Assembly: GCF_000284455.1 (NCBI RefSeq)
Contig: NC_017039.1
Location: 2,730,001-2,762,000 of the forward strand
DNA: 32,000 bases
Source: Synechocystis sp. PCC 6803 substr. PCC-P
GTDB lineage: Bacteria; Cyanobacteriota; Cyanobacteriia; Cyanobacteriales; Microcystaceae
Reading direction: 5' to 3'
The position numbers were made by a program, and so were the translations under genes. Of this stretch, positions 4,327 to 28,515 are shown piece after piece (position 1 is the first letter of the stretch; each line of letters opens with the position of its first letter). The notes below the pieces were generated by a model, which worked only from the letters and a program-made list of their open reading frames with translations, was not told the DNA's origin and searched no databases.

Positions 4327-5619
4327 TCATTGCTGGGGCCATTTTAAAGATTCGTAAAATTCTCCTAAACGGTTAATGCTGGCGGCAAATTCAGTAATAT
4401 TTTGAATCTGGTTGGTTACTAGAGATAGGGCAGAAAGGACCATGCCAAAGGCCAAACTAGCTTGGGCGATCGCCCCGAAGTCCAGGTCTCCTGCGAGGTA
4501 AAGGGGGGCGATAATAATATAGGGAATTAGCCTGGTGAAATAGTTATAGCCTAGCTGAAATAGGCTGATTAAAGCTTGCCAAATAATTAGTAAATTAAAG
4601 TTTCTAATCGCCCCTAGCAAACGATCCGTAACCTGTTTCCGCTCTAGCCCTTCTCCCCGGTAAAAAGCGATGGATTCGGCGTTATCTCTTACCCGCACCA
4701 AGCCGTAACGGAAATTAGCTTCCAACCGCAGTTGTTCATAGTTAATGCGGATTAGCCTAGTGCCAATGGCGATCGCCACCACTGTCCCGAAGACCGCATA
4801 ACCAATCAACCCCCACATAAGGGTTTGGGAAATGGTGTAGAGGATGGCGGTAAAGGAAATTAAGGTGAGGATGGAGTCAAGGATATCCAATAAAAAATCC
4901 AGAGTAACCCCGGTAAAGGATTGGATATCCTGGGTTATCCTTTGGTCGGGATTATCAATTAAGGTATAGGCAGAATTGGAGTCGAGATGATAGTAGGAAC
5001 GCCCTTTAAAGTAGCGGCCAAGAAAGTGTTCCGTCAGCCATTGCCGCCAGAGCACCCCTAACTTTTGTCGTAAATAGCGGTAGGCCACAATGATGGGAAT
5101 AGCCACCACAATGACAATGCCATAAATCCAGAGAAATTGCCAAAATACTTCTGCATCTTTGCCGTTTAAAGCTGTATCAATGAAGCGAAAAACAAAGCTT
5201 AAAATAACGTTTAAGCCGTTGACAACAAATAGTAGAGATAATAATACGCCCAACAGCAACCACTGGAGCCACCGTTGTTGTAATTTTTGGCGCTGGCTGA
5301 TGAAAACAGCCCCGGCCATGGCCAAGGCCACTAAACCGATCCAAGGAGCCGGGGAATTGATCAGACCTTGTACCCCATCTACCAAACCCTCACCAGATTT
5401 AGCAAAAAAGTCAGGGAAAATTGCTGTGGCCCAGAGGGTCAACCCCATGGATAAAAATAGGGTCAAGGCCACCACCACCACCATGAGGGCCAGGATGAGA
5501 CCGAGAAAAACCCGAGTTTGCTTTTGCCCCACCGGATAAAAATAGGGCTGGGCAGTTTCAACAAAGCGGTGCCACAGTTGGCGATCAAACTGAAAACGCT
5601 TGGCTTGGGCTTGGGTCAT
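4327..5619 (-). CDS. ABCD-type (ABC_membrane_2 / SbmA-BacA-like) transporter transmembrane domain
   Basis: Multiple hydrophobic helices are present. The ABCD-family signature EANFRYGLVRVRDNAESIAFYRGEGLE is also present. ATG 5619 (MTQAQAKRFQF) is preferred over TTG 5628. The ORF ends at TGA 4329-4327, directly abutting the NBD ORF. Confidence 0.8.
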   Translation of the reverse strand: MTQAQAKRFQFDRQLWHRFVETAQPYFYPVGQKQTRVFLGLILALMVVVVALTLFLSMGLTLWATAIFPDFFAKSGEGLVDGVQGLINSPAPWIGLVALAMAGAVFISQRQKLQQRWLQWLLLGVLLSLLFVVNGLNVILSFVFRFIDTALNGKDAEVFWQFLWIYGIVIVVAIPIIVAYRYLRQKLGVLWRQWLTEHFLGRYFKGRSYYHLDSNSAYTLIDNPDQRITQDIQSFTGVTLDFLLDILDSILTLISFTAILYTISQTLMWGLIGYAVFGTVVAIAIGTRLIRINYEQLRLEANFRYGLVRVRDNAESIAFYRGEGLERKQVTDRLLGAIRNFNLLIIWQALISLFQLGYNYFTRLIPYIIIAPLYLAGDLDFGAIAQASLAFGMVLSALSLVTNQIQNITEFAASINRLGEFYESLKWPQQ

Positions 5620-5662
5620 AATTCTCAAAAGCCGGATTGAACATTAGTGTGTTGAGTAATGG

Positions 5663-5690
5663 AATCTACGGATGTCATTCAAACAGTCAA
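5663..5690 (-). promoter_or_regulatory. Candidate sigma-70-type promoter for the ABC transporter gene
   Basis: On the minus strand: TTGACT (5690-5685), a 16-nt spacer, then TAGATT (5668-5663). This sits about 40 nt upstream of ATG 5619. Pattern match only. Confidence 0.3.
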
Positions 5691-5756
5691 GGACTGTGAA
5701 AGTTACTCTACAAAATGAATAATTGAGTATTTTACTTATTATAATAAGTCATAATT

Positions 5757-6380
5757 TTAATCAGATTCTAACAAGCATTTTTGAAGCGCATCTAGTCGCT
5801 CATTTTCATCATTTATACGAAACCATTTTTGTGAATTTACTAAATATTGGATGGTCATTTCATCAATTTTTCTTGGCCCACTATTTTCTTCTTTTATAAG
5901 ATTGGTGGCTTGAATCACGAGATTTTCAAAATTCAATATATTCATGTCATTTATTAATGATATTGCTTCAAACATAGACTTGAGTCCATGGGAAAGTTTA
6001 CCAGAATAAATGCATATTTTTTCATCGGGAGGGGTAAAGTAAGTTATTCCAAAATTAGTTAAGACTTTAGCATCAGAAAACATTTGAAAGCAGGGAATGC
6101 CGTAGAGAATGAAGCAAGGCAATTTTGTTATCCTTGAGAGTTCAAATATTTGATTAATAGAGCGATCATTAGGCGGCTCACATTTAACTTCAACCCAGAA
6201 GTCAAGCTTCGGAAAATAAAAATCTGGGACATATAATTCCCGATTTGGCAGCTTAAATGTTTTTGGCTCGTATTCAAAAAAAGCTCCGATCATTCTAAAT
6301 ATTGATGCCCAGGCTGCTTCTGTTCTGCCTCTAAAATAAAAACCATTAAAATAGGTTACTTTGCCTTTATTTATATTCAT
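5757..6380 (-). CDS. Orphan PD-(D/E)xK nuclease-fold-like protein (TnsA-N / DUF1064-like core) with an uncharacterised C-terminal half
   Basis: Residues 15-66, YFRGRTEAAWASIFRMIGAFFEYEPKTFKLPNRELYVPDFYFPKLDFWVEVK, carry an E21 ... D53 ... E64-x-K66 arrangement (nt about 6183-6320). The gene is very AT-rich. I recognise no homologue for residues about 100-207. Confidence 0.5.
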   Translation of the reverse strand: MNINKGKVTYFNGFYFRGRTEAAWASIFRMIGAFFEYEPKTFKLPNRELYVPDFYFPKLDFWVEVKCEPPNDRSINQIFELSRITKLPCFILYGIPCFQMFSDAKVLTNFGITYFTPPDEKICIYSGKLSHGLKSMFEAISLINDMNILNFENLVIQATNLIKEENSGPRKIDEMTIQYLVNSQKWFRINDENERLDALQKCLLESD

Positions 6381-6539
6381 AATTTAATACTTTTTTAGAT
6401 TCGATTCTGATTTTGCCTGAGTTTATATTCAAAGAAAAGACTTAAAAACTGGAAAAAAGCAACCTTTTTACTAATAACGAATAAACTAACTTTAATAAGT
6501 CTAAGTTAATATCTTCTCCCCAATAATGAACATCAAGCA

Positions 6540-6743
6540 CTAGGCCATAAATAAAAGTGGTTTAGGATTGGGCAAAGGTTGATCATCTTTTGTTAATAAA
6601 CCTAATACCTGCTGGGCATTATCAAAAGCCTCTTCATAGGTTTCACCATGGGTAACAGGTTGCATCACTGTTTCAAACTCAGGTAAAAAGACAACAAAGC
6701 AATTGTCTTCATTTGACCATTGAATAACGATTGTATATTTCAC
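6540..6743 (-). CDS. hicB: HicB-like antitoxin (UPF0150/HicB N-terminal fold)
   Basis: MKYTIVIQWSNEDNCFVVFLPEFETVMQPVTHGETYEEAFDNAQQVL matches the HicB N-domain pattern. The GTG start lies 2 nt after the hicA stop. Confidence 0.75.
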   Translation of the reverse strand: MKYTIVIQWSNEDNCFVVFLPEFETVMQPVTHGETYEEAFDNAQQVLGLLTKDDQPLPNPKPLLFMA

Positions 6744-6745
6744 CG

Positions 6746-6961
6746 TTAACTGTCCTCTTGATCAAGTTTTTGCAACATAGCAAGGCTATTCTTTACCTGT
6801 TTTTCAAGGTATGGTTTGGCATCACTGCCATCATTTCCACAAATAATGATAGCTTGCTCCAGTTTGGGATGCTTCCATTTACTATGACTTCCCTTCCCTG
6901 ACTCAACGGTAAATCCTGCTTTGCTAAGTAGACTTTTTAGTTCTCTAATTTTCTTGGGCAT
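6746..6961 (-). CDS. hicA: HicA-family mRNA interferase toxin
   Basis: MPKKIRELKSLLSKAGFTVESGKGSHSKWKHP matches the YcfA/HicA pattern, including the conserved GSH histidine. The gene sits upstream of hicB, the typical order. Confidence 0.85.
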   Translation of the reverse strand: MPKKIRELKSLLSKAGFTVESGKGSHSKWKHPKLEQAIIICGNDGSDAKPYLEKQVKNSLAMLQKLDQEDS

Positions 6962-6976
6962 TTACTACTGAATGGG

Positions 6977-18853: not shown

Positions 18854-21800
18854 ATGAAAAGTGCTTTTTTAGACCGTATCCACAGTCCCGATCGCCCGGT
18901 ATTAGTCTTTGACGGGGCTATGGGTACAAACCTGCAGGTACAGAACCTAACGGCGGCGGATTTTGGTGGGGCGGAATACGAAGGTTGCAATGAATATTTA
19001 GTCCATACCAAGCCAGAGGCCGTGGCTACGGTGCATCGTGCTTTTTACGAAGCGGGGGCCGATGTCGTGGAAACGGATACTTTTGGGGGAACGCCCCTGG
19101 TGCTGGCGGAGTACGATTTAGCAGACCAAAGTTATTACTTAAATAAAGCAGCGGCGGAGTTGGCCAAGGCGGTAGCAGCGGAATTTTCTACCCCAGAAAA
19201 GCCTCGATTCGTGGCCGGCTCCATGGGACCAGGCACCAAGCTACCCACCCTAGGTCATGTGGACTACGATAGTCTCAAGGATGCCTATGTGGTTCAGGTG
19301 CGGGGTTTATACGATGGCGGAGTGGATTTATTGCTAGTGGAAACCTGCCAGGATGTGCTGCAAATTAAAGCGGCCTTGAACGCCATTGAACAGGTCTTTG
19401 CCGAAAAAGGCGATCGCCTACCGTTGATGGTGTCAGTAACCATGGAAACCATGGGGACCATGCTGGTGGGTACGGAGATGGCGGCGGCCCTGGCCATTTT
19501 GGAGCCCTATCCCATCGATATTTTGGGGCTAAACTGCGCCACCGGGCCAGATTTGATGAAGGAACACGTTAAATATCTTTCCGAACATTCCCCCTTTGTG
19601 GTGTCCTGTATTCCCAATGCTGGTTTGCCAGAAAACGTTGGCGGTCAAGCTTTTTATCGCCTCACCCCGATGGAACTGCAAATGTCCCTGATGCACTTCA
19701 TCGAAGACCTGGGAGTACAGGTAATTGGTGGTTGTTGTGGCACTAGACCCGATCACATCAAGGCCCTGGCGGATATTGCCAAGGATCTCCAGCCCAAACA
19801 ACGCCAACCTCACTACGAACCCAGCGCCGCTTCCATTTATTCCACCCAAACCTACGCCCAAGAAAATTCTTTTTTAATCATTGGCGAACGGCTCAATGCC
19901 AGTGGCTCGAAAAAATGTCGAGATCTGCTCAATGCTGAAGATTGGGACAGCCTAGTTTCCCTGGCTAAATCCCAAGTCAAGGAAGGAGCCCAAATCCTTG
20001 ACGTCAACGTGGATTACGTTGGTCGAGATGGGGTAAGGGACATGAAAGAATTAGCTTCCCGACTAGTCAATAATGTCACCCTGCCGTTGATGTTGGACTC
20101 CACCGAATGGCAAAAAATGGAGGCGGGTTTAAAAGTTGCAGGGGGAAAATGTATTCTCAATTCCACCAACTACGAAGACGGGGAAGAACGGTTTTATAAA
20201 GTGTTAGAAATTGCCAAAGAATATGGAGCTGGTATTGTCATTGGCACCATCGATGAAGATGGCATGGGACGCACTGCAGATAAAAAATTTGAGATTGCCA
20301 AACGGGCCTACGAAGCGGCGATCGCCTTTGGCATTCCGGCCACAGAAATTTTCTTTGATCCTTTAGCTCTGCCTATTTCCACCGGCATTGAAGAAGACAG
20401 GGAGAACGGTAAAGCCACCGTGGATGCTATCCGCAGAATTCGCCAGGAATTGCCCGATTGTCATATTTTGTTGGGGGTTTCTAACGTTTCCTTTGGCTTG
20501 AATCCCGCCGCTCGCCAGGTACTCAATTCCATCTTTCTCCACGAATGTATGCAGGTGGGCATGGATGCGGCCATTGTCAGTGCCAATAAGATTTTACCCC
20601 TGGCAAAAATTGACCCAGAACAACAACAAGTCTGTCTAGATTTAATCTATGACCGCCGGGAATTTGAAGGAGAGCGCTGTACATATGACCCGTTAACCAA
20701 ACTCACCACTTTATTTGAAGGTAAAACCACCAAACGGGATAAATCCGGTGATGCCAATTTACCGGTGGAAGAAAGATTAAAACGCCACATCATTGATGGG
20801 GAAAGATTGGGCTTAGAAGAGGCCCTCAATGAAGCTTTAAAACTTTACGCTCCCTTAGATATCATTAACATCTATTTGTTGGATGGCATGAAAGTGGTGG
20901 GGGAACTATTTGGTTCCGGGCAAATGCAGTTGCCCTTTGTGTTGCAGTCGGCCCAAACCATGAAAGCGGCGGTGGCTTTTTTAGAACCCCATATGGATAA
21001 GGATGATTCCGCCGACAATGCTAAGGGTACTTTTTTAATTGCCACTGTTAAGGGGGATGTCCATGATATTGGCAAAAACTTAGTGGATATTATCCTTTCC
21101 AACAATGGCTATCGAGTGGTCAACCTAGGCATTAAACAGCCAGTGGAAAATATTATCGAAGCCTACAAAAAACACAGGCCCGATTGCATTGCCATGAGTG
21201 GTTTGTTGGTCAAATCAACTGCTTTTATGAAGGAAAATTTAGAAGTTTTCAACCAAGAGGGCATTACTGTTCCCGTCATTCTTGGTGGTGCTGCTTTAAC
21301 GCCTAAATTTGTTCACCAGGACTGCCAAAATACCTACAAAGGCCAAGTAATTTACGGCAAAGATGCGTTCGCCGATTTACATTTCATGGATAAGCTAATG
21401 CCCGCTAAAAATAGCCACAATTGGGATGATTTCCAGGGCTTTTTAGGGGAATATGCAACGGAAAATGGCCATAATGTGACCACTGATGATGGTGCTAAAA
21501 CTAATTTTGGCATTGAAGAAGAAAAATTAATTGACGCTAGTGAGCAGTCTAGGGAGCCGGAGGTAATTGATACTGTTCGTTCTGAAGCGGTGGACCCTGA
21601 TCTAGAAAGACCTGTGCCACCTTTTTGGGGCACTAAAATTTTGCAATCCAGTGATATTTCCCTCGATGAAGTCTTCCCTTTACTGGATTTACAAGCATTA
21701 TTTGTTGGTCAGTGGCAGTTTCGCAAACCTAGGGAGCAATCCAGGGAAGAATACGAGCAATTCCTAGCGGAAAAAGTTCATCCCATTTTGGCTGAGTGGA

Positions 21801-22441
21801 AAGGTAAGGTCATGGCAGAAAATTTACTCCATCCTACGGTGGTTTATGGTTATTTTCCCTGTCAATCCCAGGGCAATACCTTGTTAATTTATGACCCAGA
21901 ATTGGTCAGCCAAAATAATGGCCAAATTCCCCCAGACGCAACGGCGATCGCCAAATTTGAGTTTCCCCGGCAAAAATCAGGGCGGCGGCTCTGTATTGCG
22001 GACTTTTTTGCTTCAAAAGAATCGGGGATTACTGATGTTTTTCCTTTGCAAGCGGTTACAGTGGGGGAAATCGCGACGGAATATGCAAGGAAACTTTTTG
22101 CTGGCGATAATTACACCGATTACCTCTACTTCCACGGCATGGCGGTGCAGATGGCGGAAGCTTTAGCGGAGTGGACTCACCAACGGATACGTCAGGAATT
22201 GGGCTTTGGCCATTTAGATCCAGATAACATCCGTGATCTTCTCCAGCAACGTTACCAAGGTTCCCGCTACAGTTTTGGTTATCCCGCTTGTCCCAACATG
22301 CAGGATCAATACACACAATTAGAATTGTTACAAACCGAACGAATTGGCTTGTATATGGATGAAAGTGAACAGGTTTATCCAGAACAATCCACCACGGCGA
22401 TTATTTCCTATCATCCTGCGGCTAAATATTTCAGCGCTTAA
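18854..22441 (+). CDS. metH: Cobalamin-dependent methionine synthase
   Basis: This is a 1,195-aa, four-module protein. It has the Hcy-binding module (GGCCGT), the pterin-binding module, the B12-binding DxHxxG motif (GDVHDIGKN) with MSGLL, and the AdoMet activation domain at the C-terminus. Confidence 0.97.
21944..22129 (+). repeat. Left copy of an imperfect direct repeat (metH 3' region) whose degraded partner lies at 28265-28451
   Basis: Hand alignment gives roughly 85% nucleotide identity over about 186 nt. A second block, 22379-22441, matches 28452-28515. Confidence 0.85.
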
Positions 22442-22468: not shown

Positions 22469-22678
22469 ATGCCTAAGAAAATTAGGGAATTAAAAACGAT
22501 GCTTTTTCAATCAGGTTTTACCTGTAAATCGGGCAAGGGGAGTCATACAAAATGGGATCATCCCCTACTGGATGGAATAGTCACACTTTCTGGTAAAGAT
22601 GGCAGTGATGCTAAGTTTTATCAAGAAAAGGATGTTTTACAAGCTATTCAAATTGTTAAACAAAAAGGAGGAAATTGA
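22469..22678 (+). CDS. hicA: HicA-family mRNA interferase toxin (second copy)
   Basis: MPKKIRELKTMLFQSGFTCKSGKGSHTKWDHP. It is about half identical to the 6746-6961 copy and starts 27 nt after the metH stop. Confidence 0.85.
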   Translation: MPKKIRELKTMLFQSGFTCKSGKGSHTKWDHPLLDGIVTLSGKDGSDAKFYQEKDVLQAIQIVKQKGGN

Positions 22679-22914
22679 TGATGGAAAATGTTCAAAACCA
22701 TTATTCTTTAATTATTCAATGGTCAGATCTTGACAACTGCTTTGTGGTCAGTTTACCTGAATGGGGTGATTTTTGTCACACCCATGGGGATACCTATGAG
22801 GAGGCTTTCCAACAAGGGAAGGAGTTGTTGGATTTTTTAATTGAAACTACGCTAGAGGAAGGGAATATTTTGCCTATTCCCCAATTTTTTCAACAATCAT
22901 TAGTTACGACTTAA
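22678..22914 (+). CDS. hicB: HicB-like antitoxin (second copy)
   Basis: YSLIIQWSDLDNCFVVSLPEWGDFCHTHGDTYEEAFQQGKELL. ATG 22678 overlaps the hicA TGA (TGATG), and an AAAGGAGG SD lies just upstream. Confidence 0.75.
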   Translation: MMENVQNHYSLIIQWSDLDNCFVVSLPEWGDFCHTHGDTYEEAFQQGKELLDFLIETTLEEGNILPIPQFFQQSLVTT

Positions 22915-23009: not shown

Positions 23010-23259
23010 TTAATTTTTCAAGCTTAAATAATTTTGAGCAGCGTGTTCTGCCTCTGTTATGCCCAGAGGTAAAATATTGACAGACGTTAAAATGCTGGCA
23101 ATTGCTTGTTCAATTTTTAATGCACGTTGGGGATTTAGGGCTAAGCCATATTGTTGAAACGGCAATCTCGATTGGTGGGGTTTGTTTGAGTTTGGTCGTT
23201 GTTCCCGACTCTCCCTTGATAAAGTCACTAATCACATAGGTATCAAGCAGGTAACGCAT
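23010..23259 (-). pseudogene. vapC: Degraded PIN-domain toxin vapC (frameshifted and 3'-truncated)
   Basis: From ATG 23259 the frame reads MRYLLDTYVISDFIKGESGTTTKLKQTPPIEIAVSTI, then runs to a stop at 23112-23110. A second frame continues QQYGLALNPQRALKIEQAIASILTSVNILPLGITEAEHAAQNYLSLKN and stops at 23010. The last third of a PIN domain, with the third and fourth acidic residues, is absent. Confidence 0.6.
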
Positions 23260-23501
23260 TAGAATAACTCTGGTTCACAGGGAGAGAGAAGCTCATCTCG
23301 ATACGACTCAAATTCAGGGAAATTCGGAAAACCTTCGTAAGATATAACGACTTCTGTCCATTGGGAAGTGGAAACGGTAGGCATTTCAATCATTTGGCGT
23401 AAGGCTTTCAAAATGATGGTTTGTAGGGGAACATTCGCTGTTTTTGCTTGACGAAGTAAATCTTGTTCAATATCTGGCGGTAGATTGATTGTAATTTGCA
23501 T
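23259..23501 (-). CDS. vapB: VapB-type antitoxin (RHH-like N-terminus), apparently intact
   Basis: MQITINLPPDIEQDLLRQAKTANVPLQTIILKALRQMIE is typical of cyanobacterial PIN-partner antitoxins. Its stop overlaps the vapC start (TAATG). A GAGGG SD precedes the ATG. Confidence 0.6.
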   Translation of the reverse strand: MQITINLPPDIEQDLLRQAKTANVPLQTIILKALRQMIEMPTVSTSQWTEVVISYEGFPNFPEFESYRDELLSPCEPELF

Positions 23502-23530: not shown

Positions 23531-26500
23531 TTAATTTTTGGGCATCGCTTGTTGTTCAATCTTTGAAGGGGAACCATTTAAACTATCCTTTAGCACATCG
23601 TTAAATATACCATTAAAAAAAATACCAACTACTGTTGCAATAACTCCAATTATTCCAATCACTCCAAACAGAATCTCCCAATTAAATCTTTTTTGTTTCT
23701 CTGGACTAGAACAAGTCACGTTATTACTTGTTACACCACTTGTACCGACCGGAGCATTAATTGTTGAATCTGAAATATTGTTGATAATTTTGGGCTCATC
23801 TTCCATTTTTTCTGTCCTCTTATCTATGGTACTAAGTTGATTAGATAAATCTAAATTAGAAGGCTCTGGAATAATTAAAAATTCAAGAAGTTTATCTGGT
23901 TTAAAAGGTCGCCAAGTTTCACGGCGCATATTTTGTTGTGCATAAGTTAGCGTTTCTTTTAACCAAGGGAGATGGGGAAGCTCCTGGATAAGACGCTCAA
24001 GTTCAGCACAGGCTTCGATGGTCCCTTTGTCTCTTAATTGTGATAAAGAGTTATTCCTAAAAAATGCAATATTATCTCTAGGGCTAACTATATAAGCCAT
24101 TACTTCGTTTCGATGATCCGGATCTTCATAATGAGGATACTGCCACACTAACCAGGCATATAAATCTGCAATTTGTTTTTCAGTCAAGTCAAACTTGATT
24201 CCACTTAAATTACAAGAAGCGGCTAATTCAAATGCCTCGCGTCCAAACTGTACATCTGCCGTAATTTTTTCCCATATTACATTCCAGCTATCTGGATCTG
24301 AATAAGTGATAAGTGCTTTAATGGCGAACAATGCTTTTTGCCGTTCACTATCAAATTCACTATTAGTATAATTTCGTATTGTGGATAAAGCGATATCTTT
24401 GGCTTGAACAGCTCCTTGCTCAATAAGTTTTTCTAATAGCTTTCTAAATACGTTAGGCTTTAATTGAGAATCTTTTACTTTTTCTGTCAAGTTATTTTCT
24501 AATTTTTCATCCCAACACATCTCTAAGCGATCAATCACAAAAATATTATTATCTTGATTTTCTTTGTCAATCAATTTTAAAAGCGTTGTCAAAAATTCAT
24601 CTGGAGAATGGTGATATGAGAGGCTGACTAATTTTCGGCAATTTTTTCTTGGATTTGAGTCAATAAAACTATTAGGAACTGACAGGATTATGGGTGTCCA
24701 TCTTTTCCATATATCCGTTGAAAAATTGTCTAAAGTTCTTGGAGCTTCCGTCAAGATTAACTGTAATGCCTTGCAACCATACAATTCGGAAAAATTATAT
24801 GTATTTGTTCCTATCCAGCTATAATCTATATTTGTTTGCTGTTGAATATATTGAATTGCCCCCTGAATAATTCTTTTTTTTGTTGCTTGCTCTGCTTCTT
24901 TCCATCCCGGAAGCTGAGTCAGATCTAATTTTAAGTTATGACCATAACGTTTGCTTTGTGGCAGTAAAGTCATTTCTCGATTTAGTCGCCACCATGCGGA
25001 TAAATCTCCCGATTCTAACTGCTCTAAACAGTCAATAACTCTTTCTTTTGGTGGAGGATCTAGCAAGTCCGGCTTATTCCAGGAATTTTTCATTTTAAGA
25101 TAATGATCACGTAATTGAGTCACTTCTTCTGAGTCCAACTCAATAGGAGTAAAGTAATAACTAAAAACGTCACTAAGAATAGAGTTGTTTTGAGTGGCTT
25201 TAATAATTTCACTTATCTGCTTTGTATCTCGACGATCAAATACTTCCTCGATTATTTTAGCCCACGCTCTTTGAATTTTTTCATGGTTGGAATCTTGGAG
25301 TTTTTCTAGCATCCAATCAACATCATTGGAGCTTATAATTGGTTCTGTCATTGAGCTTGTTAAAAAATAAAAATCTTCATCTTCATCTTTTTCTGCAATG
25401 CTTTCAACTAAATTTTCAATAAGAGCATAACGCTTTTGATTGTTTCCCAAAAGTGATTCTTGAAATTGGGCTTGTAAACTCGGAGAATGACTAATGAGTT
25501 TCTGATGCTCTTTCCATTGTAATAATGCTACTTGCGTAAAACCCTCCAGTACTCCAGGAACGTTAACGTGTTCCCATGCTTTTAGCAGAATTGCATCTCC
25601 TAGTTCTTCAAATGGATGCCCAAAGCATCGCACACCTTGAGTTTTCAGCCAGTCGAGAGCAATAACTAAATCTTCGGAATCAAGTTGTGGAACTAACTCA
25701 GACTCAAGAAAATATCGATGCATTCCAAGCAAATTTATCCTTTTCGATGGAGTGAGCGCCTGAAATAATTCTTCGGCTGTTAGTTGCCTTGGCCAGAGTG
25801 CTTTCAACGCATAGGCTTTTAGTTCATCTTGCTCATCTTCCGGTAAAACATTGAGTGCAAGGGACTTTAGCTTTAATCTTGTAGATTGATCACCTATTGA
25901 ACTAATAGCACGGGCGGCATTAACTCTTATACTTATTGGCTGTGATGGACAAAGAGTTAGCTTTGCTAAGTCACCTTGAAGCTCAGAGAGATTACACTCT
26001 ATGGCAATATCAATTGCTATCCTTCGTGTATCCTCTTTCTTGCTGGAATCACAAATATAAACTTTCAACTGCTCAGCTAGCCCAGAATGTTTTAATTTTG
26101 CGTAATTACGAACGTTGCAAAATCCTCGATCAAATAATTTTTCTTCCTCATATTGCATTAATAAATTAGCAACAATTGTCGCTCGAAGCTCTGAATCAGT
26201 AGGTATATCGGTTTGCAAAAGAACGTCAGGATCAGTTTTAATTATCTCTTGAAACACATTATCCCTCATGGAAGCTAACCAAACTGCTGTTTCATGAAGT
26301 TGTGGAATAAGCTTAGGAGTGGAATCAGCAGATGAATACAACAATGTCTTAATCTTTGATAAGTCAATGTTTCGTTGCGTCAAATACCAAGCCGCAAAAA
26401 ACTCAGCATAGGTTTGGTGTGCCCATCCCATTCGATGCAATCCACGAGATGAAAATAAACCAGTATCTAAAACTTCTTGAATTACTTCTTGAGTAATCTC

Positions 26501-27490
26501 AAATTCTCTTCCATTTGATTCTTCATAACCGAAACATAACTTTTGACGAGGAACATCTTCAGCCGGAACTTGTCCCTGTTCGACATCAATCCACACAGCA
26601 AATCGATTAGCAAAGATCGTAACGGCGGCAATTCGAGCTGCCACAATCAGTCGTTGATCAATATCTAAATTGCCTGTCTCCTTTAAGGCATGACGACATT
26701 TACTTACTTCTTCGCAAAGACACTTGCATCCTTCAAGATAAGATTCATAACGTTTCTGTTCTGGAGGAAATTGGCTGTTATGACGGCGGTATGTATTCAA
26801 TAAAAATCCTAGAGAGATTGGTTTAATCGCTAGGGGTACAATATCCCTTTGGTTAATCGCTTTCAGAAAGTCATCGGAAGAAAAACCTTCAGCTTCCACA
26901 GCGTTGATTACGTCTATACGGCGAAGTGGAGCTAGTTCATAAATTGCAAAGTTACTTTCTTCCCAAAGAGCTTTTAGAGCTTCTTCTAAAATGGATGGAA
27001 ACGCCAAAGTTCGACAAGTTAAACGGAGATGAAGACGATTAATATGACTTCGATATTTAGGTTTCTTAAACTCATCAACCAATCCTATCGCCAAGGATTT
27101 GACGTTCAAGAGTCCTTCATCAAGACTGTCCAAAAACAAATGGAGGTGATAATGACCCTCTAACCAGTCGGAAAAAGTTTTATCCCTAAACAAATCCTCT
27201 TTTAAATTAGTAAAGGTTCGAAGATTCAAGCCCAGGACTTTACTATATTCGCAGATTGTTTCTTCGGTAAATCGTTGTAGCTTTTCTAGTTCGTGGGTTT
27301 TGCCAACGCCAGGCTCCCCCAATAAAACAAGGCAAGGAATCTCAGCAATATCTTCTAAACTCACCAGATCTGGGTTACATGCTTTGCCCCATTTTGTATT
27401 TGGATCGTCTAAGTAACCGCCATCTCTCAGACTTATGTTACCTGAGCGAGGACACCAGAACCGCTTCCAATTATAGTTTTGTTGCGACAT
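23531..27490 (-). CDS. NACHT-type STAND P-loop NTPase with a long helical-repeat (ARM/HEAT-like) region and a single C-terminal transmembrane helix
   Basis: Walker A is GEPGVGKT (res 58-65) and Walker B is LFLDSLDE (res 118-125). LRLTCRT, PLAIKP and WAHQTYAEFFAAWYL (res 356-370) are NACHT-like signatures. The TM helix is ILFGVIGIIGVIATVVGIFF (res 1273-1292). The gene is AT-rich and HIP1-free. Confidence 0.75.
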   Translation of the reverse strand: MSQQNYNWKRFWCPRSGNISLRDGGYLDDPNTKWGKACNPDLVSLEDIAEIPCLVLLGEPGVGKTHELEKLQRFTEETICEYSKVLGLNLRTFTNLKEDLFRDKTFSDWLEGHYHLHLFLDSLDEGLLNVKSLAIGLVDEFKKPKYRSHINRLHLRLTCRTLAFPSILEEALKALWEESNFAIYELAPLRRIDVINAVEAEGFSSDDFLKAINQRDIVPLAIKPISLGFLLNTYRRHNSQFPPEQKRYESYLEGCKCLCEEVSKCRHALKETGNLDIDQRLIVAARIAAVTIFANRFAVWIDVEQGQVPAEDVPRQKLCFGYEESNGREFEITQEVIQEVLDTGLFSSRGLHRMGWAHQTYAEFFAAWYLTQRNIDLSKIKTLLYSSADSTPKLIPQLHETAVWLASMRDNVFQEIIKTDPDVLLQTDIPTDSELRATIVANLLMQYEEEKLFDRGFCNVRNYAKLKHSGLAEQLKVYICDSSKKEDTRRIAIDIAIECNLSELQGDLAKLTLCPSQPISIRVNAARAISSIGDQSTRLKLKSLALNVLPEDEQDELKAYALKALWPRQLTAEELFQALTPSKRINLLGMHRYFLESELVPQLDSEDLVIALDWLKTQGVRCFGHPFEELGDAILLKAWEHVNVPGVLEGFTQVALLQWKEHQKLISHSPSLQAQFQESLLGNNQKRYALIENLVESIAEKDEDEDFYFLTSSMTEPIISSNDVDWMLEKLQDSNHEKIQRAWAKIIEEVFDRRDTKQISEIIKATQNNSILSDVFSYYFTPIELDSEEVTQLRDHYLKMKNSWNKPDLLDPPPKERVIDCLEQLESGDLSAWWRLNREMTLLPQSKRYGHNLKLDLTQLPGWKEAEQATKKRIIQGAIQYIQQQTNIDYSWIGTNTYNFSELYGCKALQLILTEAPRTLDNFSTDIWKRWTPIILSVPNSFIDSNPRKNCRKLVSLSYHHSPDEFLTTLLKLIDKENQDNNIFVIDRLEMCWDEKLENNLTEKVKDSQLKPNVFRKLLEKLIEQGAVQAKDIALSTIRNYTNSEFDSERQKALFAIKALITYSDPDSWNVIWEKITADVQFGREAFELAASCNLSGIKFDLTEKQIADLYAWLVWQYPHYEDPDHRNEVMAYIVSPRDNIAFFRNNSLSQLRDKGTIEACAELERLIQELPHLPWLKETLTYAQQNMRRETWRPFKPDKLLEFLIIPEPSNLDLSNQLSTIDKRTEKMEDEPKIINNISDSTINAPVGTSGVTSNNVTCSSPEKQKRFNWEILFGVIGIIGVIATVVGIFFNGIFNDVLKDSLNGSPSKIEQQAMPKN

Positions 27491-27635: not shown

Positions 27636-28208
27636 TCAAAGATCCTTAAAAATTTCATTAACAGTTAACGATAACTGGGGAAACGTAGGGGACTGAATTG
27701 CCATTACCTCTTTAAAATTACCTACTTCCTGATAACAACCGGCTAATAATTCTAAAACCAAGACCGTTTGGGTTTGGGGATCGACAATCCAATATTCAGG
27801 AATGCCACAGGCTTGATATTGTTGACGCTTCGCAATGTAGTCCCGCTCCCGTTGTAATTCCCCCGGACTGACAACTTCCACCACTAGCAAGGGCGGTAAC
27901 ATCGATAACCGAATCGTATTGCGTTTAGCTAATTGGGCAATATGCTCTTCTCGAATAATCGTCAAATCAGGAAAACGGTTTTTGGGTTCGCCGTGAACTT
28001 CTAGTTCTAAACCGTGTCCCCGTACCCGTCGATAACCGACAATTTCAGCAAATTTGAGCAGTAAAAATGTGGCAATTTGAAAGTTTAAACCCGATTCCGT
28101 CGGCACAGCGATTAATTCCCCATTGAATAATTCATAGAGTTGATCAGTATCGTCTTCGTACGCAAGATACTCGTCAAAGCTTTTAAAGCGGGGTTGGAGC
28201 GCTAACAT
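27636..28208 (-). CDS. Uma2 (DUF820) family putative PD-(D/E)xK endonuclease
   Basis: YELFNGELIAVP...PDLTIIREE...PLLVVEVVSPGELQRERDYIAKRQQYQACGIPEYWIVDP is the family signature. Confidence 0.8.
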   Translation of the reverse strand: MLALQPRFKSFDEYLAYEDDTDQLYELFNGELIAVPTESGLNFQIATFLLLKFAEIVGYRRVRGHGLELEVHGEPKNRFPDLTIIREEHIAQLAKRNTIRLSMLPPLLVVEVVSPGELQRERDYIAKRQQYQACGIPEYWIVDPQTQTVLVLELLAGCYQEVGNFKEVMAIQSPTFPQLSLTVNEIFKDL

Positions 28209-28264
28209 AGGCTACCGTTTTCAGAAATAATTAGGCTTTTATTCTAACGATTTAGTAATTTTAT

Positions 28265-28515
28265 GGCGATCGCCAAATTTGAATTTCCCCTGCAAAAGTC
28301 AGGGCGACGGCTTTATATTACGGGCTTCTTTGCCCCAAAAGAGTCGGATATTACCGATGTTTTTCCTTTGCAAGCTTTGACAGTGGGGGAAATAGCAGCG
28401 GAATATGCGAGAGAACTATTTGCTGGCGATAATTACACCGATTGTCTCTACCCAAAATAGTCCGACCAGGGCGATCATGGCCTATCATCCCACTGCCATG
28501 CACTTTAGTACTTAA
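28265..28515 (+). pseudogene. metH: Decayed remnant of a metH 3' end (in-frame ~249-nt internal deletion plus a premature TAG at 28458-28460)
   Basis: The track ORF at 28263-28460 translates [62 protein letters not shown], against met[63 protein letters not shown]. The tail 28452-28515 aligns to the last 63 nt of metH. It ends 1 nt from the convergent pmbA stop. Confidence 0.85.

Follow-up and report, generated by a model that had tools for sequence, protein, structure and literature searches.

Bacterial NACHT proteins are STAND NTPases that are separated from other STANDs by a Walker B motif of the form D[GAS]hDE (10.1101/2022.07.19.500537), and their standard set of effectors comprises proteases, nucleases, TIR domains and glycosyltransferases. 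The bNACHT proteins described by Kibby et al. (10.1101/2022.07.19.500537) carry C-terminal HEAT-type 'antigen-receptor' repeats and are abundant in cyanobacteria; most of those characterised have N-terminal effectors or short C-terminal extensions, and that work interprets transmembrane (TM) regions as sensor elements with several passes rather than as one effector helix at the C-terminus. An effector placed behind the repeats, at the C-terminus, is a recognised minority layout among bacterial NACHT proteins. Two further NACHT families, EruA and HyoA, bear antiphage names in NCBIfam; literature searches for both found no source publication, and 'antiphage' is in their case an NCBIfam label only. 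Here a related gene is described, sll0178 of Synechocystis sp. PCC 6803, the main cyanobacterial model, of whose immune repertoire little has yet been charted. The gene is located within 32,000 nucleotides (substr. PCC-P, NC_017039.1, positions 2,730,001 to 2,762,000), referred to below as the window, to which all coordinates apply. Its product shares with the bNACHT proteins the D[GAS]hDE NACHT module and the HEAT-type repeats, and it differs from them in ending in a low-complexity segment followed by one predicted TM helix (LC-TM). We hold with moderate confidence that Sll0178 is a single-chain, NLR-like STAND NTPase with this LC-TM tail as its C-terminal effector, the whole forming a membrane-acting switch for phage defence or cell suicide.

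The open reading frame (ORF) runs uninterrupted for 3,960 nt from an ATG start, with an in-frame stop upstream, and its product is 100% identical to Sll0178 of Synechocystis PCC 6803. A first-pass annotation, made by a model from the sequence alone, had delimited this ORF and a series of motifs within it, and all of the coordinates that it listed are correct at the residue and nucleotide level. The coding sequence and the elements of its NACHT module are:

23531..27490, minus strand: sll0178 coding sequence, a NACHT-HEAT-(LC-TM) STAND protein of 1,319 aa
27341..27490, minus strand: conserved N-terminal extension of the NACHT module, residues 1-50 (YxWKRFWCPRSG...NPDL), near-invariant
26366..27340, minus strand: NACHT module, residues ~51-375, with P-loop nucleotide-binding domain, helical domain and winged helix (AlphaFold and Foldseek)
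27296..27319, minus strand: Walker A, GEPGVGKT, residues 58-65, of which G58, E59, G61, G63 and K64 are invariant
27116..27139, minus strand: Walker B, LFLDSLDE, residues 118-125, with the NACHT signature D121-S122-L123-D124-E125 (motif and alignment)
27008..27028, minus strand: LRLTCRT, residues 155-161, with the sensor-1 arginine R160 at the end of strand 153-160 (motif, alignment and model)
26381..26425, minus strand: winged-helix motif WAHQTYAEFFAAWYL, residues 356-370, with the invariant H358 (in WAHQTYAEF; motif, alignment and model)

GEPGVGKT agrees with the Walker A consensus GxxxxGK[ST], residues 121-125 have the D[GAS]hDE form of Walker B, and R160 and H358 supply the sensor-1 arginine and the winged-helix histidine; PLAIKP is present at residues 219-224. 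In an alignment of 60 relatives whose identity is 45-71% across residues 1-410, D121, S122 and D124 as well as the five Walker A residues listed above were found to be invariant in all 60, as were R156, C159, R160, H358, Y361, E363 and A366, while E125 is conserved in at least 90% of them. Because they are invariant across these relatives, the NACHT motifs of Sll0178 are under selection and are not chance matches.

The fold leads to the same assignment. An AlphaFold model of residues 1-410 that draws on 60 homologues (pLDDT 88, pTM 0.88) has the nucleotide-binding, helical and winged-helix domains in an arrangement nearest to solved NACHT structures, and the top 20 Foldseek matches in the PDB are all NLR NACHT modules (E 1e-10 to 2.5e-8, TM-score 0.46-0.59), with NLRP14, NOD2, NLRP3, NLRC4, NLRP1 and NAIP5 as the best of them (E ~1e-10, TM-score 0.52-0.59). 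Avs4 (rank 21), ORC/Cdc6 and clamp loaders come below these. The Pfam match to PF05729 (NACHT) that had been expected at first pass is absent even at E<=1, Pfam giving weak matches to AAA_22 and AAA_16 only, and neither the PHROGs profiles nor a PDB sequence search with the whole of Sll0178 returned a match. As the sequence is divergent and PF05729 is silent, it is the fold and the motifs that carry the assignment; together with the NCBIfam NACHT-family profiles, they make Sll0178 a NACHT-clade STAND NTPase, a bacterial relative of the animal NLRs, as the first-pass annotation had proposed. Its further statement that there is no N-terminal effector also stands: residues 1-50 are nearly invariant across all classes of tail described below, residues 11-50 are modelled at pLDDT ~89-94, and this extension is a constant part of the NACHT module and not an effector domain.

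Behind the NACHT module lies a long helical body:

23876..26365, minus strand: HEAT-like alpha-solenoid, residues ~376-1205, presumed sensor (AlphaFold and Foldseek)

In the AlphaFold model of residues 381-1319 (mean pLDDT 80), this part is an unbroken stack of helical hairpins that stays all-alpha to about residue 1230, in agreement with the helical-repeat body of residues ~380-1230 that had been read from the sequence. Foldseek aligns the solenoid with SF3B1, importin-beta, CAND1 and the mTOR/ATM HEAT solenoids (E ~1e-5, TM-score ~0.2), and because these are generic HEAT matches at a low TM-score, no specific sensor homologue can be named. Identity among relatives is 38-54% in the body as against 45-71% in the NACHT module, as would be expected of a recognition surface, and the solenoid is presumed to be the sensor.

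It is at the C-terminus that members of the family differ in kind. From more than 2,244 homologues of Sll0178, the best 120 proteins and 80 genome loci (one per species) were taken, which yielded 159 non-redundant full-length relatives; in all 159, similarity to Sll0178 ends near residue 1205 and a variable module follows. Alignment of the tails places 52 of the 159 in the class of Sll0178, with a low-complexity segment and a TM helix, and 47 in a class with a low-complexity segment and a small helical domain (four subtypes, one member being without the terminal helical part). Another 33 end in a domain of ~205 aa that is probably PD-(D/E)xK-like, as suggested by an invariant D..E-x-K and a sub-threshold match to PDDEXK_3 (E 0.0086); a profile search of PDB sequences with this tail class found nothing. 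A compact CHAT protease is found in 21 (Pfam E 1.7e-12) and a TIR domain in one (TIR_2 E 7.9e-15), while the other five have short or odd ends. Pfam gave noise only for the non-enzymatic tails, that is, for the TM tails and the low-complexity plus helical classes B, C and D, which gave no basis for naming them EAD, Death-like or Bell domains.

At least five interchangeable C-terminal outputs are therefore carried by one chassis, and the LC-TM tail of Sll0178 sits in the effector slot. This comparison, in which a constant body is followed by a swappable C-terminal effector, is the main new result of the analysis. That the membrane tail of Sll0178 stands at the position where relatives have a killing enzyme is the strongest argument for taking it as an output and not as a mere anchor, and it upholds the earlier view that the membrane helix is the only candidate output module of the protein, since relatives have CHAT, TIR and PD-(D/E)xK-like domains in the same place. 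A distant relative of 1,637 aa on the pTi plasmid of Rhizobium sp. K1/93 (L086, 5986-10899) has a C-terminal glycosyltransferase domain, and is flanked by genes for SIR2, an AAA ATPase, an integrase and a Tn3 transposase.

The tail of Sll0178 is made up as follows:

23534..23875, minus strand: C-terminal tail module, residues 1206-1319, ~115 aa (classification, alignment and exhaustive profile search)
23735..23761, minus strand: INAPVGTSG motif, residues 1244-1252, within the low-complexity segment (motif counts)
23603..23680, minus strand: predicted single TM helix, residues ~1271-1296 (hydropathy and AlphaFold helix)

Aligned TM tails share one order of elements, in which a linker (EPSNxDLSNQ..ID.RTKKMEDEPK) is followed by an Asn/Ser-rich segment that often includes INAPVGTSG, a basic patch (KKGxNW), a hydrophobic stretch of 14-24 residues and a near-invariant juxtamembrane motif, SGxFN(E/D)E. 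In Sll0178, the helix is preceded by a basic KQKR flank, the 19-residue Kyte-Doolittle maximum of 2.77 lies at residues 1273-1291 (the next best in the protein being 1.74), and AlphaFold gives disorder at 1231-1270 and then two helices, one at 1271-1289 and a short one at 1297-1304, the pLDDT for the tail being below 40. The low-complexity linker and one hydrophobic helix that the first reading had placed at the end of the protein are recovered in these data.

A full HMMER scan with the TM-tail profile against 1.84 billion cluster representatives, which superseded an earlier word-indexed search that gave 4 proteins, found 45 proteins, and in 45 of 45 the module is at the extreme C-terminus. 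Besides family members and their fragments, the carriers are canonical HEAT_2/PBS-HEAT proteins (P0136, P0139 and P0155), metagenomic fragments of Roc-COR GTPases (P0162 and P0157; COR-B at 1e-30), and free-standing proteins of 107-169 aa (P0123, P0124, P0158-P0160, P0164 and P0165). Since it ends the two Roc-COR fragments, the module is common to NACHT and Roc-COR switch proteins; being rare, mobile between NTP-switch or repeat scaffolds and able to stand alone, it behaves as an effector module. Judged from the alignments, the TM tail is a conserved module and not a random hydrophobic end. EACC1 was considered as its identity and rejected, as the tail of Sll0178 has no EACC1-type Pfam match.

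The low-complexity segment of this tail invites comparison with amyloid signalling. NLR-associated amyloid signalling motifs (BASS) have been described in cyanobacteria and actinobacteria (10.1101/2020.01.06.895854), and the Bab/Agp gene pair has been shown to work by amyloid signalling in phage defence (10.1101/2024.11.07.622273). Motifs of the class [FIV]N[AGN]P[VIF][NG], to which INAPVGTSG and FNAPVN-type motifs belong, occur in 27/52 TM tails, 4/4 class-D tails, 4/6 class-C tails and 1/36 class-B tails, and in 0/55 enzymatic tails; one was found in 166,899 residues of flanking ORFs and none in 182,850 residues of the bodies of family members. The free-standing LC-TM proteins P0123 and P0124 have another motif, GNYNExIxGDYIxGN, which occurs again in the adjacent gene, where it stands at the beginning (L088, region 6867-8072) or in the interior (L089, region 406-2037). 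These neighbour copies read MEGNYNETIQGNYIQGN and RGGNYNETVQGNYIQGDYI, and a variant of the motif is seen in the tail of family member P0105. The sharing between P0123/P0124 and their neighbours matches the gene-pair pattern of amyloid signalling motifs, such as BASS pairs and Bab/Agp, and may be regarded as only a lead.

Such conservation in non-enzymatic tails and such repetition next door are what could be expected if the low-complexity segment were an amyloid-like signalling motif, in which NACHT oligomerisation nucleates a cross-beta fold that drives the helix into the membrane in cis, and stand-alone LC-TM proteins could then be templated in trans. We regard this as unlikely. The segment is disordered in the AlphaFold model, and a second copy of INAPVG was found neither in the window nor in the flanks of TM-class loci, the motif being confined there to the tail itself, so that the motif pair of BASS/Bell systems, one copy on the NLR and one on an adjacent effector gene, is not found for Sll0178. 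Published BASS/Bell pairs have their elements in the opposite order to that of Sll0178, in which the motif lies at the C-terminal end of the NLR, ahead of the terminal domain, and a flexible Asn/Ser-rich linker is the simpler explanation. A fuller form of the idea, to which a similarly low probability is given, is that the 115-aa tail may be an undescribed self-contained death module, whose Asn/Ser/Gly-rich segment would fold cooperatively (amyloid- or beta-arch-like) upon oligomerisation of NACHT, Roc-COR or other NTP-switch scaffolds and thereby drive the terminal helix into the membrane. It would then be a cis-fused counterpart of HET-S/NWD2 and Bab/Agp, and the stand-alone LC-TM proteins would be trans-templated amplifiers.

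Directly 3' of sll0178 lie two small genes:

23259..23501, minus strand: vapB-like gene, 80 aa, 29 nt downstream of sll0178, intact, 64-71% identical to its counterparts in L001 and L002
23010..23259, minus strand: vapC (PIN) pseudogene (three-frame translation against the intact PIN of L001 and L002)

A Pfam scan of the 80-aa vapB-like protein gave no match, and an intact homologue of the PIN matches Pfam PIN at E 6.5e-19. In the window, vapC retains ~37 codons in one frame and the next ~40 in another, and the C-terminal third (~50 residues) is gone, so that no intact PIN toxin stands beside the antitoxin. Elsewhere the pair is whole: in 10 of 12 TM-class genome loci, an intact vapB-vapC follows the NACHT gene on the same strand at a distance of 4-66 nt, and in an 11th it does so at 315 nt, which means that the gene cannot be called an orphan, as it had been at first pass. 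Overall, vapBC is found beside the NACHT gene in ~22/84 loci, including some loci with PD-(D/E)xK tails (L022, L024, L028 and L063) or low-complexity plus helical tails and none with CHAT tails. A metagenome search that started from the PIN gave 25 loci in which the PIN was identical at 70% or more and the upstream sequence extended for 1.2 kb or more; vapB is present in 24/25 of them, and a NACHT gene or remnant lies upstream in 15/25, as against 0/29 for more distant PINs. Remnants of ~60-80 aa from the 3' end of a NACHT gene lie directly upstream of intact vapBC in L093, L094, L116, L125 and L151, as footprints of gene loss.

This association has to be weighed as a possible explanation of the tail itself. 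The TM helix might be a tail anchor only, with Sll0178 serving as a sensor or scaffold tethered to the membrane and a separate partner relaying its signal, most likely the downstream PIN RNase with the VapB-like protein as inhibitor or adaptor, an arrangement that would be crippled in PCC 6803. The close, same-strand spacing in TM-class loci and the difference between close and distant PINs speak for it, as does the fact that at linked loci the PIN (72-84% identity; vapB 54-74%) is better kept than the NACHT protein (40-58%). However, members with enzymatic tails have vapBC as well, so it is no stand-in for a missing effector; 10/25 close-PIN loci are without a NACHT gene, and L093 (2674-2898) keeps an intact vapBC beside a 74-aa 3' remnant of one, whereas the window has a dead vapC beside an intact ORF of 1,319 aa. 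That each partner has been lost independently of the other is how a hitch-hiking toxin-antitoxin pair behaves, and a TM tail that is conserved and mobile across scaffolds is more than an anchor requires. We therefore consider this explanation rather doubtful, and VapC as the missing effector has been downgraded on account of its presence at enzymatic-tail loci and of the losses in both directions. The link between the NACHT gene and vapBC is specific, yet it is dispensable both ways and is found also with enzymatic tails; the sequences are best read as those of a co-travelling addiction module rather than of a part of the mechanism.

The wider distribution of the family bears on whether the protein is likely to be immune at all. 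Among the homologues mentioned above, many are already annotated as 'NACHT domain-containing protein'. The family occurs in Brocadia, Binatia, Chloroflexota, Bacillota, Paenibacillus and an archaeal metagenome-assembled genome, with 45-50% identity in the NACHT region, and members are found on plasmids of Nostoc, Dolichospermum, Bradyrhizobium, Rhizobium and Bacillus, beside TIR, SIR2, integrase, Tn3 and Abi genes, and on three IMG/VR viral contigs. The flanks of 78 homologue loci contain 538 ORFs in 428 clusters, of which 383 are confined to one locus; the only recurrent clusters are PIN (17 loci), Uma2 (9) and one unknown Nostoc gene (9). Several of the contexts hold TIR, SIR2, Abi or toxin-antitoxin genes, as seen at individual loci. 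On the Egbenema chromosome (L001, 1-61), a second, unrelated NACHT gene (Pfam NACHT and NCH2, 765 aa) is located 10 kb upstream of the homologue of Sll0178, with YafQ-like, PIN and helix-turn-helix genes between the two, and the whole looks like a small toxin-antitoxin/NLR-like cluster.

The family is thus large, horizontally mobile and centred on cyanobacteria, and its variable contexts, which the first-pass annotation had made a condition of its proposal and which do include some metabolic neighbours, do not fit a housekeeping gene. If Sll0178 were instead a non-immune signalling or housekeeping STAND protein, such as a membrane-associated regulator, with an island-like context that is incidental, this could account for the aldolase, malic enzyme and PhoX genes in some homologue neighbourhoods, for the location of the window's island between metH and pmbA/tldD, and for the failure of any PADLOC defence model to match Sll0178. 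It accounts poorly for the lack of conserved synteny apart from vapBC and Uma2, for the patchy spread over phyla, plasmids and viral contigs, and for the swapping of CHAT, TIR, nuclease-like and TM tails, which is the pattern of conflict systems and not of housekeeping regulators; the related EruA and HyoA, moreover, carry antiphage names. Of the explanations considered here, it seems to us the least probable, and very improbable in itself.

In the window, sll0178 lies in an island between metH (18854-22441) and pmbA/tldD, with the following features besides the vapB-vapC remains:

22469..22914, plus strand: hicA-hicB toxin-antitoxin genes at the left end of the island (Pfam HicA_toxin 3.4e-8, HicB_lk_antitox 4.3e-6)
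27636..28208, minus strand: Uma2-family putative endonuclease gene, 145 nt upstream of sll0178 (Pfam Uma2 2.2e-31)
21943..22129, plus strand: left direct-repeat copy, a segment of metH (blastn 85.6% over 187 nt)
28265..28451, plus strand: right direct-repeat copy, a displaced metH fragment (ORF 28263-28460 translates to a metH-like peptide)

The GC content is 0.34-0.41 over 22.5-28 kb as against ~0.48-0.53 in the flanks, and of the 27 HIP1 sites in the window none lies between 21944 and 27622, a gap with a chance of ~0.003 (Poisson, at a flank density of ~1 site per kb). The earlier description of an AT-rich, HIP1-free island with toxin-antitoxin modules and a nuclease is thereby substantiated, the modules being hicAB and vapB with a decayed PIN, and the nuclease being Uma2. 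The second copy of the metH segment lies 5.8 kb downstream of the first, and the copies begin exactly at HIP1 sites (GCGATCGC), at 21944 and 28266. As these repeats bracket the low-GC island, they suggest that DNA was inserted or replaced in the 3' part of metH, possibly via recombination at HIP1. Further low-GC stretches (0.34-0.42) lie in the window outside the island, at 5500-7000, 11000-12500 and 14000-15500. Within the island there is no excess of promoter-like sites (19 vs 16.8±4.0 in shuffled sequence) or of terminator-like sites (7 vs 4.9±1.9). Uma2 genes adjoin the NACHT gene in the window and in 9/78 homologue loci (L003, L004, L022, L032 and others), an adjacency that may have arisen by chance, Uma2 genes being very numerous in cyanobacteria.

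An island of this kind could also be in decay, and sll0178 could be an inactive relic in PCC 6803, in frame yet non-functional. In favour of this, the neighbouring vapC is a pseudogene, the degenerate metH fragment marks an old rearrangement, the orthologue in Synechocystis sp. PCC 7339 (P0016, the closest outside PCC 6803 at 88% identity) is truncated to an 805-aa fragment without the P-loop region and the tail, a sign of decay of the gene in a sister strain, and the juxtamembrane motif of Sll0178 is off consensus. Yet a 3,960-nt unbroken ORF in DNA of 38% GC, with every invariant catalytic residue kept, speaks for ongoing purifying selection, and the variant motif of Sll0178, FFNGIFND, is found in other carriers of the module as well (P0160 and P0162). 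We consider it quite improbable that the gene is such a relic.

The preferred reading, that of a STAND switch with a membrane-acting tail, leads to a mechanism that can be put in a few steps. The solenoid would bind its trigger, for which a protein of the phage or a host protein that has been perturbed is the most likely candidate, and this binding would free an ADP-locked NACHT module for nucleotide exchange and oligomerisation. Oligomerisation would gather the C-terminal modules, and in Sll0178 the clustered TM helices would perturb or permeabilise the membrane, so that the infection would be aborted. For Sll0178, the analysis establishes fold, motifs and architecture, the place of the tail in the effector slot, its movement between scaffolds and a variable genomic context, whereas the defence function, the nature of the trigger, oligomerisation, membrane insertion and toxicity are inferred.

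A number of points weigh against this reading. At the level of the protein, the TM prediction is drawn from hydropathy and from a helix that AlphaFold models at low confidence, one helix at the C-terminus could serve as an anchor alone, the hydrophobic stretch among relatives is as short as ~14 residues (range ~14-24), which is small for a bilayer span, and the juxtamembrane NGIFNDV of Sll0178 deviates from the SGxFNEE consensus. Some neighbours of homologues are housekeeping genes, and the vapC pseudogene together with the truncated PCC 7339 orthologue means that the system may be relaxed in this lineage. To the silence of PF05729 mentioned above may be added that PADLOC-DB v2.0.0, which covers Avs and other catalogued defence systems, misses Sll0178, its sole match being at the P-loop level (mad8, E-value 0.034), that the EruA and HyoA scores given below are far under the equivalog cut-offs (142 vs 1000 bits and 131 vs 1200 bits, respectively), and that a literature search on sll0178 found no paper mentioning the gene. 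In the accessible part of the supplementary tables of two systematic NACHT/STAND surveys, Synechocystis is not listed, and Sll0178 is absent from that part of those of Kibby et al. (10.1101/2022.07.19.500537).

If the reading is right, the family is a natural experiment, in which one NACHT-HEAT sensor chassis has been fitted with at least five exchangeable C-terminal outputs, including a minimal membrane module of ~115 aa that is also found on Roc-COR GTPases and free-standing. Two questions would thereby become open to direct test, namely how an NLR-type oligomer activates a C-terminal rather than an N-terminal effector, and whether a single helix with a low-complexity segment suffices for killing a cell. 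The bacterial NLR-like proteins would, in addition, gain a class of TM effectors, and the family may tie them to amyloid-type signalling, so far described in fungi, in actinobacteria and in a single E. coli system. What merits follow-up is the swapping in the effector slot and the rare, mobile LC-TM module. The first-pass annotation had presented the protein as an undescribed defence sensor; that description is correct only in part, as the family has many members labelled as NACHT proteins, distant relatives in EruA and HyoA that are named antiphage, and a layout with a C-terminal effector that is recognised.

Among known systems other than the bNACHT proteins, Avs proteins such as Avs4 (PDB 8dgf), which is among the Foldseek matches, resemble Sll0178 in combining sensor, switch and effector in one protein. 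They differ in belonging to another STAND clade and in having N-terminal effectors and TPR-like sensors, and no PADLOC Avs model matches Sll0178. TM elements are among the effector types attached to Avs7/Dsr1-type sensors. In HET-S/NWD2, BASS/Bell and Bab/Agp, an NLR-type sensor is likewise joined to a membrane-targeting terminal domain via a short Asn/Gly/Ser-rich motif, and occurrence in cyanobacteria is a further point of likeness; in Sll0178, by contrast, motif and membrane element are fused in cis at the C-terminus, and there is no motif-bearing partner gene. The TM effectors of type III CRISPR (Cam1/Csx23), CBASS and Pycsar provide a precedent of another kind, in which a small TM element kills or arrests the cell once a sensor domain oligomerises. 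These are triggered by cyclic nucleotides and not by a covalently attached STAND switch, and they have no known sequence relationship to the tail of Sll0178. EACC1 (Kaur et al. 2020, PMC7159879) resembles the tail in being a conserved single TM helix with short flanks, found in conflict systems of multicellular bacteria, and differs in being encoded by a separate 5' gene, in having a caspase-protein partner and in occurring mainly in actinobacteria.

The closest likeness is to EruA and HyoA. The EruA profile (NF058535) matches Sll0178 with 141.6 bits (E 3.1e-41), residues 44-1212 aligning with profile positions 17-1145 of 1318, and the HyoA profile (NF058534) with 130.9 bits (E 3.7e-38). Six other family members score 82-304 bits with EruA, and 0/7 members reach the cut-off of either profile. 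A genuine HyoA (WP_050598590.1, 1,425 aa) scores 1422 bits against the cut-off of 1200 and was found on the Klebsiella plasmid NZ_CP129856 and in 3/5,426 E. coli genomes. On the plasmid (L170, 478993-494102), it has a defence-island context, lying between genes for a SIR2-family protein, a WYL-domain protein and the pair of an ATP-binding protein and a DEAD-box helicase; this HyoA is annotated there in PLSDB as a hypothetical protein. This HyoA is 20% identical to Sll0178, in the NACHT region only, and its C-terminus gives a weak hhalign match to the PD-(D/E)xK-like tail profile (probability 66%, E 5e-5). Like Sll0178, EruA and HyoA are proteins of ~1,318-1,430 aa that have no N-terminal effector and in which the NACHT module is followed by a long helical body. 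Unlike in Sll0178, whose tail is a different module, the profile of EruA runs on for ~170 final positions that are left unmatched. The Sll0178 family is therefore a distinct branch of the same design as EruA and HyoA, that of a NACHT module, a solenoid and a C-terminal effector.

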